Of a stretch of DNA of 32,000 bases, positions 160 to 6,522 are shown one piece after another (positions within the stretch are counted from its first letter, which is position 1; the number at the start of each line of letters is the position of its first letter). Source of the stretch: Nitrosopumilus maritimus SCM1 (GTDB lineage Archaea; Thermoproteota; Nitrososphaeria; Nitrososphaerales; Nitrosopumilaceae). The DNA is taken from NCBI RefSeq assembly GCF_000018465.1, contig NC_010085.1, positions 1,470,001 to 1,502,000 of the forward strand. Direction: 5' to 3'. Under the pieces are notes generated by a model. It worked only from the letters and a program-made list of their open reading frames with translations, was not told where the DNA came from and made no database searches. The position numbers were made by a program, and so were the translations under genes.

Positions 160-816
160 TTAGAGCTTTACGTAATGTAAAACTAGATGATTTTTGAGCC
201 TCTTTACTGATTTGAGTCTGAGATTAGGAGAATGAGAAATTCTGCTAAATCCAGTACCTCGTAAATAGGAAATAGAGTCTTCTCCACCAAGTAAGTAAGG
301 AGATATCGTTAGTATCATTTCATCAAAGAGATTATGTTTTACAAATTCCCAGTTTACAGTTCCTCCTCCTTCAACCAGTATTGTTTTGATTTTCTTTTTT
401 GATAGTTTTTTCAACAGTAATTTTAAATTCACAGAATCATTACCGGTACTAATTATTTCAACAGGGAATTTTTCTAGTTTTTCAAGATTTTTTTTAGTAA
501 TTTTTTTAGATATTGCAATTATCGTTGGAACTTTGTTACTTGATTGAAGAATTTTTGATGTTTTTGAAATAGTACCTTTAGAATCTAAAACAATTCTGAT
601 AGGGTTTTTTCCTTTAACATGACGAACAGTCAAGAGAGGATTATCACGTGATGCGGTATTTTTTCCAATAAGAATTGCATCTACACTTGAACGTAATTTA
701 TGAAGTCTTTGAATATCTTTTTGTGATGAAAGTTTTGAATCGTTTGTTTTAGTTGCAATTTTTCCATCAACAGATATTGCTCCACTTAGAATAACATGAG
801 GTCTAGATTTTTCCAT
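160..816 (-). CDS. arfC: 2,5-diamino-6-ribosylamino-4(3H)-pyrimidinone 5'-phosphate reductase (RibD C-terminal/DHFR-like fold, archaeal ArfC type)
   Basis: ATG at 814-816. N-terminus PHVILSGAISVDGKIA and later ILVEGGGTVNWEF are typical of RibD-C/ArfC reductases. It is the last gene of the riboflavin operon and overlaps the upstream gene by 14 nt. Confidence 0.85.
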   Translation of the reverse strand: MEKSRPHVILSGAISVDGKIATKTNDSKLSSQKDIQRLHKLRSSVDAILIGKNTASRDNPLLTVRHVKGKNPIRIVLDSKGTISKTSKILQSSNKVPTIIAISKKITKKNLEKLEKFPVEIISTGNDSVNLKLLLKKLSKKKIKTILVEGGGTVNWEFVKHNLFDEMILTISPYLLGGEDSISYLRGTGFSRISHSPNLRLKSVKRLKNHLVLHYVKL

Positions 817-1993
817 GAACTATTTTACCTCCAATCATTACTGCTTGGATTGCAGATTCAGATGCTCTATGTACAATAGATGCATATGGTTCATGCATTG
901 GTTCTAAATCTAATGCATGTTTGTTTAGAAATATGCAATCAGCAATTTTTTTGGTTTCAATTACTCCAATGTCTTTTTTTAGTATTTTTCCTCCATTTAC
1001 GGTAGCCATTTTCAAAATTTCTTTAGGATTGATTCTTTTTTTATGAATGCCCATTGTGACTTTCCAAAGATAATCCATTTCTCTGAACATGTCAGGAGAG
1101 TTTATCATAACATTATCTGTGCCTAATCCAAGCGTACAACCGGCCTTTTGCATCAAAGTAATGTCAGGAATTCCTTCAGCCAAAGAAGAATTTGCTCTTG
1201 GGCAAACTACTATTCCTCGAGTTTTTTTTGCAGCTAGATGAAGATCACTGTTTGATGCATGAGTCATATGAATAAGAAAATGAGGTTTCATGGACAATGC
1301 ACGAATCACTTCAGATTTTCTAGTCATCTTTTTAGATCTTGAAACGCTCTGTTTTGTTTCAGCAGAATGAATTGCTCGAATCTTTGATGTCTTTGAGTAA
1401 TGATTCAATGTTGAAGTACTGTTCTCATTTGCACCACTAACTCCAATACCATCACATTTTTGAAGAATTAGAGGCAATTCCTTGGCTTTTTCTTTAGGAA
1501 TGGGGAGATTTTTTTTGATTTCAGTTGAATTTTGGTAGAAATTAACCCTACCCAAAATAATTGATCGGATTGGAATTTCAGATAATGTTTTTTTCAACAA
1601 GATAACACCATCTAAACCCCCTTCTCTAAAATCAACAAAGGTGGTTATTCCTTTTCTAATCATAGAATGACATGTATTTTTCATAAAATTAGACAAATTT
1701 TCAGGAGGAGTGTTTTTTAGAATTTTTGACTTTGCCCCAAAAACAGGATGTATTTTTTTATCTACAGAACTTTCTAGAGTGACATCTTTTCCAATTGAAT
1801 CACCTATGTGTGTATGTGCATTGATAAATCCTGGGATCAATAAAAGATCTTCACAGTCAATAGAATCCTCTTTACCACTTGGTTTAATGTTAGGTTGAAT
1901 TCGTTTGAATCTACCATCTTGAATTTGTACATTTGTTTTTGAAACAAATTCTAATTCTTTTCCTAAAAGGAGACTAATGTTCTTGATTAACAT
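803..1993 (-). CDS. Metal-dependent amidohydrolase superfamily protein (chlorohydrolase / aminopyrimidine-purine deaminase-like)
   Basis: 396 aa. HxH metal motif PGFINAHTHIGDS near the N-terminus and later GTDN, typical of the ATZ/TRZ-MtaD-guanine deaminase branch. Overlaps arfA by 7 nt (1987-1993) and arfC by 14 nt (803-816). Confidence 0.85.
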   Translation of the reverse strand: MLIKNISLLLGKELEFVSKTNVQIQDGRFKRIQPNIKPSGKEDSIDCEDLLLIPGFINAHTHIGDSIGKDVTLESSVDKKIHPVFGAKSKILKNTPPENLSNFMKNTCHSMIRKGITTFVDFREGGLDGVILLKKTLSEIPIRSIILGRVNFYQNSTEIKKNLPIPKEKAKELPLILQKCDGIGVSGANENSTSTLNHYSKTSKIRAIHSAETKQSVSRSKKMTRKSEVIRALSMKPHFLIHMTHASNSDLHLAAKKTRGIVVCPRANSSLAEGIPDITLMQKAGCTLGLGTDNVMINSPDMFREMDYLWKVTMGIHKKRINPKEILKMATVNGGKILKKDIGVIETKKIADCIFLNKHALDLEPMHEPYASIVHRASESAIQAVMIGGKIVHGKI

Positions 1994-2742
1994 GATAATT
2001 CATAAACTTCAGGTTTTTCTTTTCCTGAATCTCGAATTTCACGAATTGTATCAAGCGATTTTGTGGCTAATTTTACAGCATCTCTACATGTAGAAGCATT
2101 ACCAATACCACAATTCAGAAAAATCTTATCATCATTTTTTATCATGTTAATGAAATCTTGTACAGATTTTTTTCCATCATCACTTGCAACTACCATAAAG
2201 TTATCACCTCCCATAAAAAACGTAAGTGAATTTTTTTCCAGAAAATATTTTGACATTCTTGAATATAATTGAAAGATTATAGATGAAATCTCATATGGAG
2301 AATTGGTTGTTCTTTTAGATGAAAGATCATCAACGTCCAAATGCATTATAGTGATTTTAGAATCAGATGTGTCATCATTAACAAATCCAAAAATATTGTA
2401 TTGTTTGTCTAGTACAACTTCATTCTTCTTTCCGTCATATGCTTTCAAATTTGCTTCAAATGGAGATTCAGCAAAACCAATTGAAATTGTTAGATATACT
2501 TCAAATGATTTTTCCAGTGTTTTTTGAATTTCAATGTGTTCTTCCAAGCCAACTCCATTTGAGACAACAAAAAATTCATCAGCTCTGTTTAGAAAAACAA
2601 GACAATTCTTTTCAGAAAATAATTTTTGTAATTGTTTGTACAGAGATGCTTGAAGCATTTGTAATTCATGCTCTCTATCGCTGCCCAAAGTTAAAGTCCA
2701 TGGACCATAACCTGTTATTTTCAAGATACTTAGTTGAATCAT
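1987..2742 (-). CDS. arfA: GTP cyclohydrolase III (archaeal, forms the FAPy intermediate)
   Basis: The N-terminus MIQLSILKITGYGPWTLTLGSDREHELQMLQASLY matches the MJ0145-type GTP cyclohydrolase III signature (xxYGPWTxT). ATGA start/stop overlap with ribH at 2739-2742. Confidence 0.9.
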   Translation of the reverse strand: MIQLSILKITGYGPWTLTLGSDREHELQMLQASLYKQLQKLFSEKNCLVFLNRADEFFVVSNGVGLEEHIEIQKTLEKSFEVYLTISIGFAESPFEANLKAYDGKKNEVVLDKQYNIFGFVNDDTSDSKITIMHLDVDDLSSKRTTNSPYEISSIIFQLYSRMSKYFLEKNSLTFFMGGDNFMVVASDDGKKSVQDFINMIKNDDKIFLNCGIGNASTCRDAVKLATKSLDTIREIRDSGKEKPEVYELSC

Positions 2743-3155
2743 TTTTGAATCCTTTTGAGTTCTGATGAAATCTTTACGACTGCTTCTACGGCACGTTCAG
2801 CTACAGGTCTAATTCGGGCATGGGCATGTCTTTCCTGCATTCCAGGACCAGATATTCCTAAAGATACAGGTTTTTGGTGTTTAATCGATAAATCAGTAAG
2901 TGCCTGAGCAGCAGCATGAGAAATAACCTCATCATGTTTGGTTTGACCTTTGATAATGGCACCCAAAGTGACTACAGCATCAACATCATTTTTTTGTAAC
3001 AACGTATCAACAATTATGGGCATATCATATGCGCCTGGAACAGAACAAGTATAGGTTATTTTTAATTTCAATGAATCAGCTTTTTCTTGTGCTACTGAAA
3101 GCATTCTAGATGTCACTTCGTCATTGAATTCCGAAACCACTATAGCAATATTCAA
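2739..3155 (-). CDS. ribH: 6,7-dimethyl-8-ribityllumazine synthase
   Basis: 138 aa. IAIVVSEFNDEVT, VPGAYDMP, VVTLGAIIKGQTKHDEVI and SLGISGPGM are classic RibH motifs. The start codon is TTG (3153-3155); no ATG is available. Confidence 0.92.
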   Translation of the reverse strand: MNIAIVVSEFNDEVTSRMLSVAQEKADSLKLKITYTCSVPGAYDMPIIVDTLLQKNDVDAVVTLGAIIKGQTKHDEVISHAAAQALTDLSIKHQKPVSLGISGPGMQERHAHARIRPVAERAVEAVVKISSELKRIQK

Positions 3156-3157
3156 AA

Positions 3158-3823
3158 TTAATGCACCTTAGCGTATTCTAGTAGTTCTTTTCCATCAATT
3201 AATGGAATTCCATTTTGTTTTGCAAACTTTTCGGCTTTATCAACAGACAATGCAGTATATGTTTCAGCATCCATCATTTCACATATTGCAGATACTGGGG
3301 TTAAACCTGCAATCTGTGTAAGATAGACAGACATTTCTGTGTGTCCTTGACGTGCTGCTAGCAAACCTTTTGATGCAATAAGTAAAGGAACGTGTCCTGG
3401 TGTTTTGAAAGATGATGCAAACTTTTTTTGTTTATTTTCAACATTGTAAATATTTGCCATTTCTCGTATTGTTAATGATCTGTCATTATCAGTGATTCCA
3501 GTATAGGTTTGATAATGATTTACAGATAAGGAAAATGTTGGATGATCACCATAAGGAGCTAATCCCATAATCATTTCTTTGTTAGATATAGAAGAATCAG
3601 CTAAAATGTCATGCATGTATTTTAGTTCAAGTGAATTGGCAAATTGATTATCTATTGCAATACAAAGTAATCCACCAGCATGTTGACGCATTCGGGCAAC
3701 ATGTTCAGGAGTAACAAATTCTGCTGCAACCATCATATCAATCTCATTTTCTCGTCCAGCAGAGTCAAACAAGAGAACAAATTCTCCTCTTTTTAGAGAT
3801 TGTAGTGCAGTTTCAAGAGACAT
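3158..3823 (-). CDS. ribB: 3,4-dihydroxy-2-butanone 4-phosphate synthase
   Basis: GEFVLLFDSAGRENEIDMMVAAEFVTPEHVARMRQHAGGLLC and TGITDNDRS are RibB signatures. The ORF-track start at 3880 is a TTG that adds 19 hydrophobic residues. I prefer the ATG at 3821-3823 (MSLETALQSL...). Confidence 0.92.
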   Translation of the reverse strand: MSLETALQSLKRGEFVLLFDSAGRENEIDMMVAAEFVTPEHVARMRQHAGGLLCIAIDNQFANSLELKYMHDILADSSISNKEMIMGLAPYGDHPTFSLSVNHYQTYTGITDNDRSLTIREMANIYNVENKQKKFASSFKTPGHVPLLIASKGLLAARQGHTEMSVYLTQIAGLTPVSAICEMMDAETYTALSVDKAEKFAKQNGIPLIDGKELLEYAKVH

Positions 3824-3901
3824 AAACAAAAAAATCCTCAGACTGATTATAAAGCTTACTTGAGAATTGGTAATTACCAATAAAGTGGTAGTTTTTCAGG
3901 C

Positions 3902-4486
3902 TTATTTTAGAATATATTTTCCGAGAATGTCAGTTTCAATATTAACTTTGTCGCCTACTTTTTTTGTTTGAAAATTAGTAACCTCAATTGTATGAGGAAT
4001 TAATGAAACAGATGCAAGATTTTTTTTGATGTCAGTTACTGTCAAACTTATTCCATCAACTGCAATAGAACCCTTTTTGACTACATATTTTGCCAATTTT
4101 TTAGGTACTTCAAACCAAACTTGAACCTCTTTGGGTTTTTTTTGAATTTTTTTAATTATTCCTACACCATCCACATGTCCTAAAACAAAATGACCTTCTA
4201 GTCTATCTCCAGCCTTTAAACTTCGTTCAATGTTCACTATTCCACCAACCTCAAGATTACCAAGATCAGTTTTCTTTGTTGTTTCTTCAATCATCTCAAA
4301 TATACAACTAGATTTTGATAGTTTTGTTGCAGTAAGACACACACCATTTAGGGCAACACTTTGTCCAATTTTCAATCCCTTTGCATGTTTACCAAGATTT
4401 ACAGTCATCTGTACTGCACTTCGATTTTTTGTATTTTTAGAAATTTTTTCTACTTTACCTATTCCTTTAACAATTCCGGTAAACAT
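3902..4486 (-). CDS. ribE: Riboflavin synthase, bacterial/eukaryotic two-barrel (RibE/RibC) type
   Basis: Canonical MFTGIV start (ATG at 4484-4486; an alternative ATG lies 9 nt upstream at 4495). Motifs: GQSVALNGVCLT, GHFVLGHVDG, KGSIAVDGISLTV, LIPHT. Confidence 0.92.
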   Translation of the reverse strand: MFTGIVKGIGKVEKISKNTKNRSAVQMTVNLGKHAKGLKIGQSVALNGVCLTATKLSKSSCIFEMIEETTKKTDLGNLEVGGIVNIERSLKAGDRLEGHFVLGHVDGVGIIKKIQKKPKEVQVWFEVPKKLAKYVVKKGSIAVDGISLTVTDIKKNLASVSLIPHTIEVTNFQTKKVGDKVNIETDILGKYILK

Positions 4487-4519
4487 CAAAATCATCTAAT
4501 AACTGACGTATAAAATGAT

Positions 4520-5245
4520 TTAGTTAATTTTCATTTTAGATTTTTTTGAATCTAATTCTTCAAATTCATTTTCACAAACCTGATGAAAAAGAGAGCATTT
4601 GTTTTCTTTTGCTGCAATCTTGATTTTTTCCATATCTTTGTTTAGAACCCCTTGAGCTGCTAAAAATGCATTATCGCTATCTCCTAATTTTTCAAATAGT
4701 TTCGATTTTGCAAGAGGTATTTCTTTGAGGCTAGAATCTACCATTTGAGCCTTATCATAAAATTCAACTGCAACTTCATAGTCTCCCAAATGGCTGTGAG
4801 ATATTGCTTTGTTCATCAAAGCTGTAACGTCTGTTGGGTCTATCGCAAGTGCTTTTTCATAGTATTCAAGCGCCTCTTTGTGTTGATTTGATTCATTTAA
4901 TGACAATCCCATACTATTCAACGCCCATGAATCTTTAGGGTTAGAAGAGAGAATTTCTTCACATAATTTTAGAACTTGTTGGTACTCACCTAAACTTTCT
5001 AATGCATAAATTTTATTTTTCAATGCATATGTATCTGATTTTTTTATTTCAAGGACCTTATCACAATAAGATATAGCTTCTTGATATTTTTCAAGATAAA
5101 TTAAAGACAAGCAGATATTTTGAAGTGCAACCATATCATTGGGGATTTTTTCTAGGAGACTCTTGCAATAATTATACATCTCTTCATATTTTCCTGCATT
5201 AAACATTCTAGTTATGACATTGCTAGGATCTAACAGATTAACCAT
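4520..5245 (-). CDS. Tetratricopeptide (TPR) repeat protein
   Basis: 241 aa of repeated ~34-aa units with the TPR pattern (e.g. YEEAISYCDKVLEI, HKEALEYYEKALAIDP, YEVAVEFYDKA). Confidence 0.85.
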   Translation of the reverse strand: MVNLLDPSNVITRMFNAGKYEEMYNYCKSLLEKIPNDMVALQNICLSLIYLEKYQEAISYCDKVLEIKKSDTYALKNKIYALESLGEYQQVLKLCEEILSSNPKDSWALNSMGLSLNESNQHKEALEYYEKALAIDPTDVTALMNKAISHSHLGDYEVAVEFYDKAQMVDSSLKEIPLAKSKLFEKLGDSDNAFLAAQGVLNKDMEKIKIAAKENKCSLFHQVCENEFEELDSKKSKMKIN

Positions 5246-5308
5246 TTCTAATAATTAGATAGAATCTCATTATCTTTAATCTATTGCAAGATAAAGATGA
5301 ATTATTGA

Positions 5309-5452
5309 TTATTTTAGGACTTTACGAATGGTTTCATTCAGCACTTTAGAGTAGCTATAGGAAGATTGTTCTTGTTGAATTAATTTTGCTTGACGTAGGC
5401 GAAGTTTCTTATCAATATCATCGTCAATCATTATGGTAACTCTCTTTGCCAT
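5309..5452 (-). CDS. Small ribbon-helix-helix (CopG/Arc/MetJ-like) DNA-binding protein, 47 aa (not in ORF track)
   Basis: Hand translation from ATG 5450-5452 to TAA 5309-5311: MAKRVTIMIDDDIDKKLRLRQAKLIQQEQSSYSYSKVLNETIRKVLK. The beta-strand (RVTIMID) followed by two helices is the RHH pattern. Confidence 0.6.
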   Translation of the reverse strand: MAKRVTIMIDDDIDKKLRLRQAKLIQQEQSSYSYSKVLNETIRKVLK

Positions 5453-5510
5453 GCGTGAAAAGTATGATGTTTATAATATAACATTATGTGAGGAGTCCCA
5501 AAAATGGGAA

Positions 5511-5861
5511 TTAGGTGTTTATGCTTGATATAACATGTTCAATATTGAAGGGTTTTTGAACTATAGTTACATTCAGTTTTTGTAATTTTTCCTCAGTTAC
5601 TGTACTAGTATCAGCTGTCACTGCAATTATACGTGCTTTAGGTTCAATCTCTTGGATTTTTTTGATTGCATAAAATCCAGAACCATTAGGCATGTTAATA
5701 TCAATAAGAGTAACATCAGGTTTCAATTTTTTATATAGTTTCACAGCAGTAATACCATCAAATCCATTTCCTACAATATTGATTCCTTTTTCTTCTAGAA
5801 ATTCAGAAAATAGTCGAACAGTATCCTCATCATCATCAATGATAATAACAGATCTGCTCAT
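5511..5861 (-). CDS. Stand-alone response-regulator receiver (CheY-like) domain protein
   Basis: VIIIDDDEDT...PDVTLIDINMPNGSG...IIAVTA...KP contains the acidic pocket, the phospho-acceptor Asp (LIDINMP) and the T/K residues. The track start 5876 is TTG. The ATG at 5859-5861 sits about 25 nt from a TATA element. Confidence 0.85.
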   Translation of the reverse strand: MSRSVIIIDDDEDTVRLFSEFLEEKGINIVGNGFDGITAVKLYKKLKPDVTLIDINMPNGSGFYAIKKIQEIEPKARIIAVTADTSTVTEEKLQKLNVTIVQKPFNIEHVISSINT

Positions 5862-5883
5862 AAATTGATAAAACAAATGTGTT

Positions 5884-5896
5884 CTTTATATTTTAG
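5884..5896. promoter_or_regulatory. Shared A/T-rich TATA-like element between divergent genes (bidirectional promoter, short or absent leaders)
   Basis: ctttatattttag lies about 20-25 nt from the ATG at 5914 (+) and about 25 nt from the ATG at 5861 (-). This spacing is typical of archaeal TATA-to-start distance for leaderless mRNAs. Confidence 0.4.
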
Positions 5897-5913
5897 ATCT
5901 CCAGATACCATAT

Positions 5914-6522
5914 ATGCCAGGATTAGACAAATTAATTTCAACATCAATCCCTATCAAAATTAAGAAAAAAATTGATGCAGATACACTAAAAAAAATTGAA
6001 CGAGAATTATTTTTAGAACATGGAATGTCAATTAAACTTGCTACAGAACATTTTCAGACATTATTAAAAATCATTAAAAAAAATTCAGAATTAGACATTA
6101 AGGAATTTGAAAATAAATGTCTAAAAGAAATCATTCAAGTAAAAAAAGTGAAAGAAAATTATCATCTAACCATACTTGATTCAAAACTGGTTCATGTGAT
6201 TTTAGATATGTTTGGAGATGATGAGACTAGAAAAATGATCACATACATTCTAAAGAGTGAACACACCATACCAGAAATTCTAAGAGAATCAGGAATACCT
6301 AAAACCTCAGGATACAGAAAGATAGAGAATCTATTAATCAGTGGATTTTTCATAGAGACTGGAAAAGTGCTTAGTGAAAGTAAAAAAATATCAAAAATAC
6401 AGTGTATTTTTCAAGAGATTTCGATAGATGCAAAAAAAGAAAAATTGACAGTTAGTGGTATTGTGCCTAAGAAAACATTTGAAAAGAGCACAACAATGAA
6501 ATCCATTCTTAAAGAATTATAG
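5914..6522 (+). CDS. Hypothetical protein with a probable winged helix-turn-helix in the C-terminal half
   Basis: 202 aa. The segment TRKMITYILKSEHTIPEILRESGIPKTSGYRKIENLLISGFFIETGK looks like an ArsR/MarR-like wHTH. I see no other recognisable motif. Confidence 0.5.
   Translation: MPGLDKLISTSIPIKIKKKIDADTLKKIERELFLEHGMSIKLATEHFQTLLKIIKKNSELDIKEFENKCLKEIIQVKKVKENYHLTILDSKLVHVILDMFGDDETRKMITYILKSEHTIPEILRESGIPKTSGYRKIENLLISGFFIETGKVLSESKKISKIQCIFQEISIDAKKEKLTVSGIVPKKTFEKSTTMKSILKEL

Follow-up and report, generated by a model that had tools for sequence, protein, structure and literature searches.

A predicted pyrimidine deaminase in the riboflavin cluster

The stretch of DNA analysed here (the window; 32,000 nucleotides (nt) of the Nitrosopumilus maritimus SCM1 genome, which is a single contig of 1,645,259 bp with a G+C content of approximately 33%) carries on its minus strand, at 803-1993, an open reading frame (ORF) for a 396-amino-acid (aa) amidohydrolase, hereafter X. 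Judged from family membership, active-site residues and gene linkage, X is very probably the 2,5-diamino-6-ribitylamino-4(3H)-pyrimidinone 5'-phosphate deaminase of the archaeal riboflavin/F420-precursor pathway. A sequence-only reading of the window had put X forward as a candidate for this step, and the candidacy was borne out by membership in the family of Methanocaldococcus jannaschii MJ0699, by a deaminase-type active site, by deep linkage to arfC and arfA, and by the fact that no RibD-type deaminase was detected in the SCM1 genome. Phosphatase aside, pyrimidine deamination is the last chemical step of this pathway without an experimentally assigned enzyme; the same reading had said so, in agreement with the searchable literature, and had left out that the family was already a published candidate. 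Since this very family was proposed in print in 2010 and 2017, the hypothesis for X is a rediscovery: the deaminase idea is correct but not new, and the window adds supporting comparative evidence to a known prediction and no new idea. Should the assignment hold, a TIM-barrel amidohydrolase would have taken the place of the cytidine-deaminase-fold RibD/Rib2, a clear case of non-orthologous displacement, and the labels 'chlorohydrolase' and 'amidohydrolase family protein' would be corrected throughout the archaeal genomes that carry the family, those of the abundant ammonia oxidisers of the sea among them.

Archaea apparently have no orthologues of the deaminase domain of RibD (Rodionova et al. 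2017, PMC5397151). The MJ0699/HVO_2483 family was proposed as the archaeal pyrimidine deaminase 'PyrD' (Osterman et al. 2010, cited in PMC5397151; Rodionova 2017). HVO_2483 and MJ0699, the latter at 34% identity to the former, were subsequently named as candidates for a step listed as awaiting experimental confirmation (Pfeiffer and Dyall-Smith 2021, PMC8305020), and the deaminase proposal for the family is also encoded in the SEED annotation.

X is a real, intact and deeply conserved gene. It starts with ATG, scores 129.9 bits on PF01979 (Amidohydro_1) and belongs to a compact minus-strand cluster with the order ribE-ribB-ribH-arfA-X-arfC. On one side it adjoins arfA, which encodes GTP cyclohydrolase III (GCH III; 1987-2742, minus strand, 251 aa; PF05165 GCH_III, 164.2 bits), and on the other arfC, which encodes the archaeal 2,5-diamino-6-ribosylamino-pyrimidinone 5'-phosphate reductase (160-816, minus strand, 218 aa; TIGR01508 rib_reduct_arch, 195.5 bits, cut-off 186.45). 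Direct reading of the arfA/X junction (atcATGttaa) placed the ATG of X at 1993-1991 and the TAA of arfA at 1989-1987, an overlap of 7 nt, while at the X/arfC junction (ttcATGgaaaaatcTAG) the ATG of arfC lies at 816-814 and the TAG of X at 805-803, an overlap of 14 nt. Both overlaps had been claimed from the letters alone, as had the HxH motif, which was found at H60/H62. The overlaps suggest that X may be translationally coupled to arfA and arfC. Domain scans also agreed with the claim that the operon holds neither arfB nor a RibD-type deaminase domain.

Family identity

On the NCBIfam model NF005552 (PRK07213 'chlorohydrolase'), X scored 330.7 bits against a curated equivalog cut-off of 294, with residues 1-387 aligned to positions 2-377 of the 382 in the model. 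This was the sole NCBIfam model whose curated cut-off X passed, and a search of the whole genome with it returned the X locus as the single match. On the models of characterised relatives, X fell far under the cut-offs, namely 102.7 vs 522 bits for 5'-deoxyadenosine deaminase, 67.8 vs 375 for guanine deaminase, and 55.6 vs 779 for methylthioadenosine/S-adenosylhomocysteine (MTA/SAH) deaminase. MJ0699 of M. jannaschii (UniProt Q58110, 'Uncharacterized protein MJ0699'), found through a cluster look-up by name and accession, scored 589 bits on NF005552 and aligned to X with 35% identity over the catalytic core (BLASTP, E 5e-51). By these sequence scores, X and MJ0699 are members of the same equivalog family. 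Besides passing the same model, X has the invariant residues of the MJ0699/HVO_2483 family and resembles it in being linked to riboflavin genes; nothing essential separates them, X being the more divergent (330 vs 589 bits) and overlapping both arfA and arfC, and the function of the family is a prediction. Among 1.8 billion representative proteins, 181 clusters matched X with E <= 1e-30, and its nearest homologues were all from Nitrosopumilus. Searches started from distant members retrieved further members of the family in Asgard lineages, Korarchaeota, Bathyarchaeota, Altiarchaeota, Halobacteriales, Methanobacterium and Methanococcales.

Active site, predicted fold and proposed reaction

In an alignment of 50 diverse representatives (28-73% identity), the residues H60, H62, D65, H209, E212, H242, D293 and N294 were invariant in 50/50 sequences, and they were also retained in divergent members at 20-23% identity, which were compared separately. 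The site of X consists of HxH (H60/H62) after strand 1, HxxE (H209/E212) after strand 5, H242 after strand 6 and D293 after strand 8, which is the mononuclear arrangement of cog0402 deaminases, and in a profile alignment these motifs fell at the equivalent positions of PDB 3lnp. The AF2 model of X, computed from the 50-sequence alignment (predicted local distance difference test (pLDDT) 96; predicted template modelling score (pTM) 0.94), consists of a distorted (beta/alpha)8 barrel and a small beta-sandwich to which both the N and the C terminus contribute. Foldseek neighbours of this model had template modelling (TM) scores of 0.80-0.87 at 15-22% identity (4gbd, 3lnp, 4v1x, 7ww2, 3ls9, 6oha) and include MTA/adenosine deaminases, the atrazine and triazine hydrolases AtzA/TrzN, the isocytosine deaminase Vcz, guanine deaminases and formiminoglutamate deiminase. 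All function-named neighbours are deaminases, deiminases or triazine hydrolases/dechlorinases, and a few others are uncharacterised amidohydrolases. A profile search of the PDB agreed with the fold neighbours, and no solved structure within the X family itself was returned by the PDB searches.

When compared to the cog0402 deaminases (guanine deaminase, the Vcz/8-oxoguanine deaminase 7ww2, the MTA/SAH deaminase Tm0936 (1p1m), and AtzA/TrzN), X has the same (beta/alpha)8 fold and the same metal and proton-shuttle set of HxH, HxxE, H and D. Guanine and isocytosine deaminases moreover remove the 2-amino group from a 2-amino-4-oxopyrimidine ring, the chemistry that would be needed of X. In contrast to these enzymes, X is approximately 40-60 residues shorter, only 15-22% identical and far under their curated cut-offs, and it carries the family motifs NAHTHxGDSxxKD, DFREGG, CPRxN and GTDNxMxNSPDxFREM where the purine deaminases have motifs of their own. 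The N-terminal domain of RibD and the fungal Rib2 are known for the same proposed step, and with Rib2, as in the archaeal route, the ribityl form is deaminated once the reductase has acted; their cytidine-deaminase (CDA) fold and active site are, however, unrelated to those of X, for which a search with the CDA-fold domain PF00383 gave no match.

By analogy with characterised relatives, X would be a (beta/alpha)8 amidohydrolase like the cog0402 deaminases, with a mononuclear metal site in which H60, H62, H209 and D293 would hold Zn or Fe along with a water molecule. This metal-bound water would be activated by H242 and D293, and E212 of the HxxE motif would pass a proton to the ring nitrogen. 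The hydroxide would then attack C2 of the ArfC product, 2,5-diamino-6-ribitylamino-4(3H)-pyrimidinone 5'-phosphate, ammonia would leave, and the product would be 5-amino-6-ribitylamino-2,4(1H,3H)-pyrimidinedione 5'-phosphate. Guanine, isocytosine and pterin deaminases likewise turn a 2-amino-4-oxopyrimidine into the 2,4-dioxo form. Two invariant residues specific to the family, K88 and R266, are the probable ligands of the 5'-phosphate, and the ribityl chain is probably contacted by D65, E124, N268, N294 and E305.

The same chemistry could be directed at another form of the substrate, either the ribosylamino compound before ArfC, as in the bacterial order, or the dephosphorylated ribityl compound. 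The sequence does not fix the order of the steps, and in the operon X precedes arfC. The order published for M. jannaschii, however, is reduction and then deamination (Graupner et al. 2002, cited in PMC5397151), and K88 and R266, which are basic and invariant, point to a ligand that is anionic and phosphorylated. We consider these other substrate forms improbable, if slightly less so than the other alternatives.

Gene neighbourhoods of X in archaeal genomes

The neighbourhoods were compared in 151 Thermoproteota genomes and, for other phyla, on contigs encoding members of the family. The arrangement arfA-X-arfC with ribB and ribH upstream was found in 21/21 Nitrosopumilaceae including SCM1, and the ends overlap in the other 20 as well. 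The best 80 loci from a search with a 10-sequence alignment were all Nitrosopumilaceae. In four other Thermoproteota families, X adjoins arfC or arfA at 24-37% identity. A Korarchaeota contig carries ribB-ribH-ribC-arfC-X, and a Jordarchaeales contig carries ribB-ribH-ribC-arfA-X-arfC, again with overlapping ends. Being common to 20 other Nitrosopumilaceae and to the Jordarchaeales contig, the arfA-X-arfC arrangement is not due to chance. The conservation of the linkage to arfA/arfC, which the sequence-only reading had offered as a check on its proposal, extends across Nitrososphaeria, other Thermoproteota, Korarchaeota and Asgard archaea.

Other contigs link X to the genes of FO synthesis. 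On a Lokiarchaeota contig, cofH-cofG is divergent from X-arfC, and a Bathyarchaeota contig shows the order X-ECH-arfC-cofG-cofH. This linkage fits the deaminase role because the compound consumed by CofG/CofH, 5-amino-6-ribitylaminouracil, is what the proposed reaction would give after dephosphorylation. Taken across phyla, the linkage of X to arfC, arfA, ribB, ribH and cofGH recurs at 24-40% identity.

Two of these contigs bear additional genes. The Lokiarchaeota contig has, directly after X-arfC and opposite cofG-cofH, a gene for a 243-aa protein (L122:5964-6695) with a faint NUDIX match only and no NCBIfam match, which could be a candidate for the phosphatase step. On a Njordarchaeia contig (L117), X is followed by a PF02649 gene at 5151-6092 (GCHY-1, FolE2/MptA-type GTP cyclohydrolase) and then by arfC; this gene may represent an alternative first pathway enzyme in lineages without arfA.

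Phyletic pattern and other candidates for the step

Among the 151 Thermoproteota genomes, an ArfC-type reductase accompanies X in 35/35 of those whose X-family match reaches 150 bits or more, and in these 35 genomes no GCH III was found in 6 and no creatininase in 3. Because X persists with ArfC where GCH III was not found, the family tracks arfC, the maker of the proposed substrate, and not arfA. Neither a RibD deaminase-reductase fusion nor a GTP cyclohydrolase II was found in any of the 151 genomes. In SCM1, the RibD model matched arfC alone, at its reductase positions 124-336, so the check for a RibD-type deaminase that had accompanied the original proposal came out in its favour.

Other proteins of SCM1 were considered for the step and set aside. 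The two CDA-fold proteins of the genome score as dCMP and cytidine deaminases; a 202-aa dCMP-deaminase-like protein, viewed as a Rib2-like alternative, is encoded next to polB, has scores on no models other than those of the ComEB/dCMP type and is missed by the RibD model. The other two Amidohydro_1 genes of the genome are adenine-deaminase-like and dihydroorotase/hydantoinase-like.

Several points weigh against the deaminase assignment. In 13 Thermoproteaceae-like genomes, arfA adjoins arfC, and only a divergent 354-aa member of the family is found elsewhere (92.9 bits, under the cut-off; NF005552 is its sole NCBIfam match). One ArfC-positive genome (G053) has no X-family match at all, and in Methanococcus vannielii and on a Halobacteriales (Hikarchaeum) contig the family gene lies apart from the rib genes. 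Counts of co-occurrence rest on genomes that are related and not independent, and they are descriptive rather than statistical. The searchable literature, which omits many subscription-journal papers, yielded neither an enzymatic assay nor a knockout or other genetic test for any member of the family.

The lack of clustering in Methanococcus also bears on the possibility that X deaminates an unrelated substrate (MTA, SAH, 5'-deoxyadenosine, guanine, pterin or isocytosine) and merely shares the rib operon. The nearest solved structures are indeed MTA/adenosine, guanine and isocytosine deaminases, and X is the only cog0402-type amidohydrolase in the small SCM1 genome. On the other side stand the scores of X, far under the curated cut-offs for 5'-deoxyadenosine, guanine and MTA/SAH deaminases, the recurrence of the linkage to pathway genes across phyla, and the restriction of strong family matches to genomes with ArfC. 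For 5'-deoxyadenosine, furthermore, M. jannaschii has a characterised deaminase of its own, MJ1541. An unrelated substrate is therefore decidedly unlikely.

Genomes in which X and arfC occur without a recognisable first enzyme form a group of their own. In genomes G002, G114 and G028 (loci L005, L006 and L010), G144 and G150 (loci L029 and L030), and G087, X adjoins arfC and GCH III was not detected. No lumazine synthase was found in G002, G114, G028 and G087, each of which has one PF02649 (FolE2/MptA-type) gene. In genomes without detectable GCH III, the X-arfC pair may feed FO synthase (cofG/cofH) only. It is conceivable, and on our assessment about as unlikely as an unrelated substrate, that the family as a whole acts as a formamidase or as a bifunctional deformylase and deaminase, or that, where X and arfC occur without detectable GCH II/III (Bathyarchaeia-like genomes), it is part of another diaminopyrimidine route, for example with a PF02649 (FolE2/MptA-type) cyclohydrolase.

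The ArfB step and creatininase-family genes

The formamidases of the pathway, ArfB (MJ0116) and BrbF, resemble X in belonging to the same pathway and sometimes to the same operon. They differ in having a creatininase fold and hydrolysing a formamide, and X has no PF02633 domain: searches of X with the PF02633 creatininase domain and with the ArfB model NF033501 gave no match to either. SCM1 has a creatininase-family gene outside the rib operon, at 197069-197710 (L001:1462-2220, minus strand; 252 aa), which overlaps a purU-like formyltetrahydrofolate deformylase gene (L001:2190-3059) by approximately 31 nt. The search of the genome for arfB that had been called for found this homologue, of which the sequence-only reading had no knowledge; it scores only 38 bits on the ArfB model, whose cut-off is 180. 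The M. jannaschii control genome contains, in addition to MJ0699, a PF02633 creatininase-family match, which is the characterised ArfB, MJ0116.

Two further contigs combine X with a creatininase-family gene. The operon of L123 reads ribB-ribH-arfA-X-arfC-creatininase-ribE, and each step of the pathway has its own gene there, since X and the creatininase are both in one operon; on the Altiarchaeota contig L124, X, a creatininase gene and ribB lie together. The L123 creatininase shows the same pattern of model scores as that of SCM1, to which it is 29% identical (E 6e-29). Because its score pattern equals that of a rib-operon creatininase, the SCM1 homologue is likely, by sequence comparison, to be the ArfB/BrbF-type formamidase of SCM1. 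A precedent is BrbF, a creatininase-family protein distant from ArfB and a proven bacterial formamidase for the ArfA-product substrate (PMC9478397). The L123 contig itself (ENA contig k141_1334257; protein P0337) is labelled 'Methylomirabilota bacterium' in one source, yet its rib operon is archaeal-type (arfA, X, arfC, creatininase), and it is probably a mis-binned archaeal contig.

The least probable of the alternatives, offered by the sequence-only reading beside its main proposal, is that X is a non-orthologous ArfB replacement hydrolysing the formamide of the ArfA product, 2-amino-5-formylamino-6-ribosylamino-4(3H)-pyrimidinone 5'-phosphate, the deaminase being another protein: X does immediately follow arfA in Nitrosopumilaceae and in several further lineages, the rib operon of the window has no creatininase-fold gene, and the low ArfB-model score belongs to the only creatininase homologue of SCM1, but the alternative is disfavoured to the point of being highly unlikely by the presence of that gene, by the L123 and L124 clusters holding X together with a creatininase-family gene, the former scoring like that of SCM1, by the BrbF precedent, by the coexistence of both genes in M. 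jannaschii, by the linkage of X to arfC even in genomes where arfA was not found, and by the characterised HxH/HxxE/H/D neighbours, which are deaminases, deiminases and dechlorinases with no formamidase among them.

Predicted operator, promoter and remaining genes of the cluster

Ahead of ribB-ribH-arfA-X-arfC, two adjoining palindromes of the form TTAC-N10-GTAA, of which the second has a single mismatch, are located at 3856-3891 and form a putative RbkR operator. A TATA-like box of the TTTATAAT type, read directly at 3845-3853 on the minus strand approximately 26 nt upstream of the ribB ATG, is a putative promoter element. A spacer of 78 nt separates the ribE stop (3902) from the likely ribB ATG (3823-3821), and it contains both the palindromes and the TTTATAAT box. 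The exact palindrome was present at the same offset in 42/48 Nitrosopumilaceae loci, and the string ACTTTATAAT is kept in related loci. The palindromes of the window fit the consensus for RbkR operators as well as the layout with two sites that Rodionova et al. (PMC5397151) describe for Thaumarchaeota, and they are a probable RbkR operator. As this conserved RbkR-type operator fronts ribB, X is probably co-transcribed with ribB, ribH, arfA and arfC from an RbkR-controlled promoter.

The remaining genes of the cluster lie upstream of arfA on the minus strand. The ribH gene, encoding 6,7-dimethyl-8-ribityllumazine synthase, occupies 2739-3155 (TIGR00114, 131.2 bits; PF00885, 117 bits). It is preceded by ribB at 3158-3823 (TIGR00506, 219.5 bits). 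The ORF tool called ribB at 3158-3880 with a TTG start at 3880; the family matches begin only at residue 19-20, and this start, which would run the gene through the palindrome site, is probably wrong. The first rib gene of the cluster, ribE (3902-4495), encodes a bacterial-type riboflavin synthase (NF006767, 228 bits; two PF00677 domains). It is of the bacterial two-domain RibE type (Lum_binding x2), while the early steps of the same operon are archaeal-type (ArfA, ArfC).

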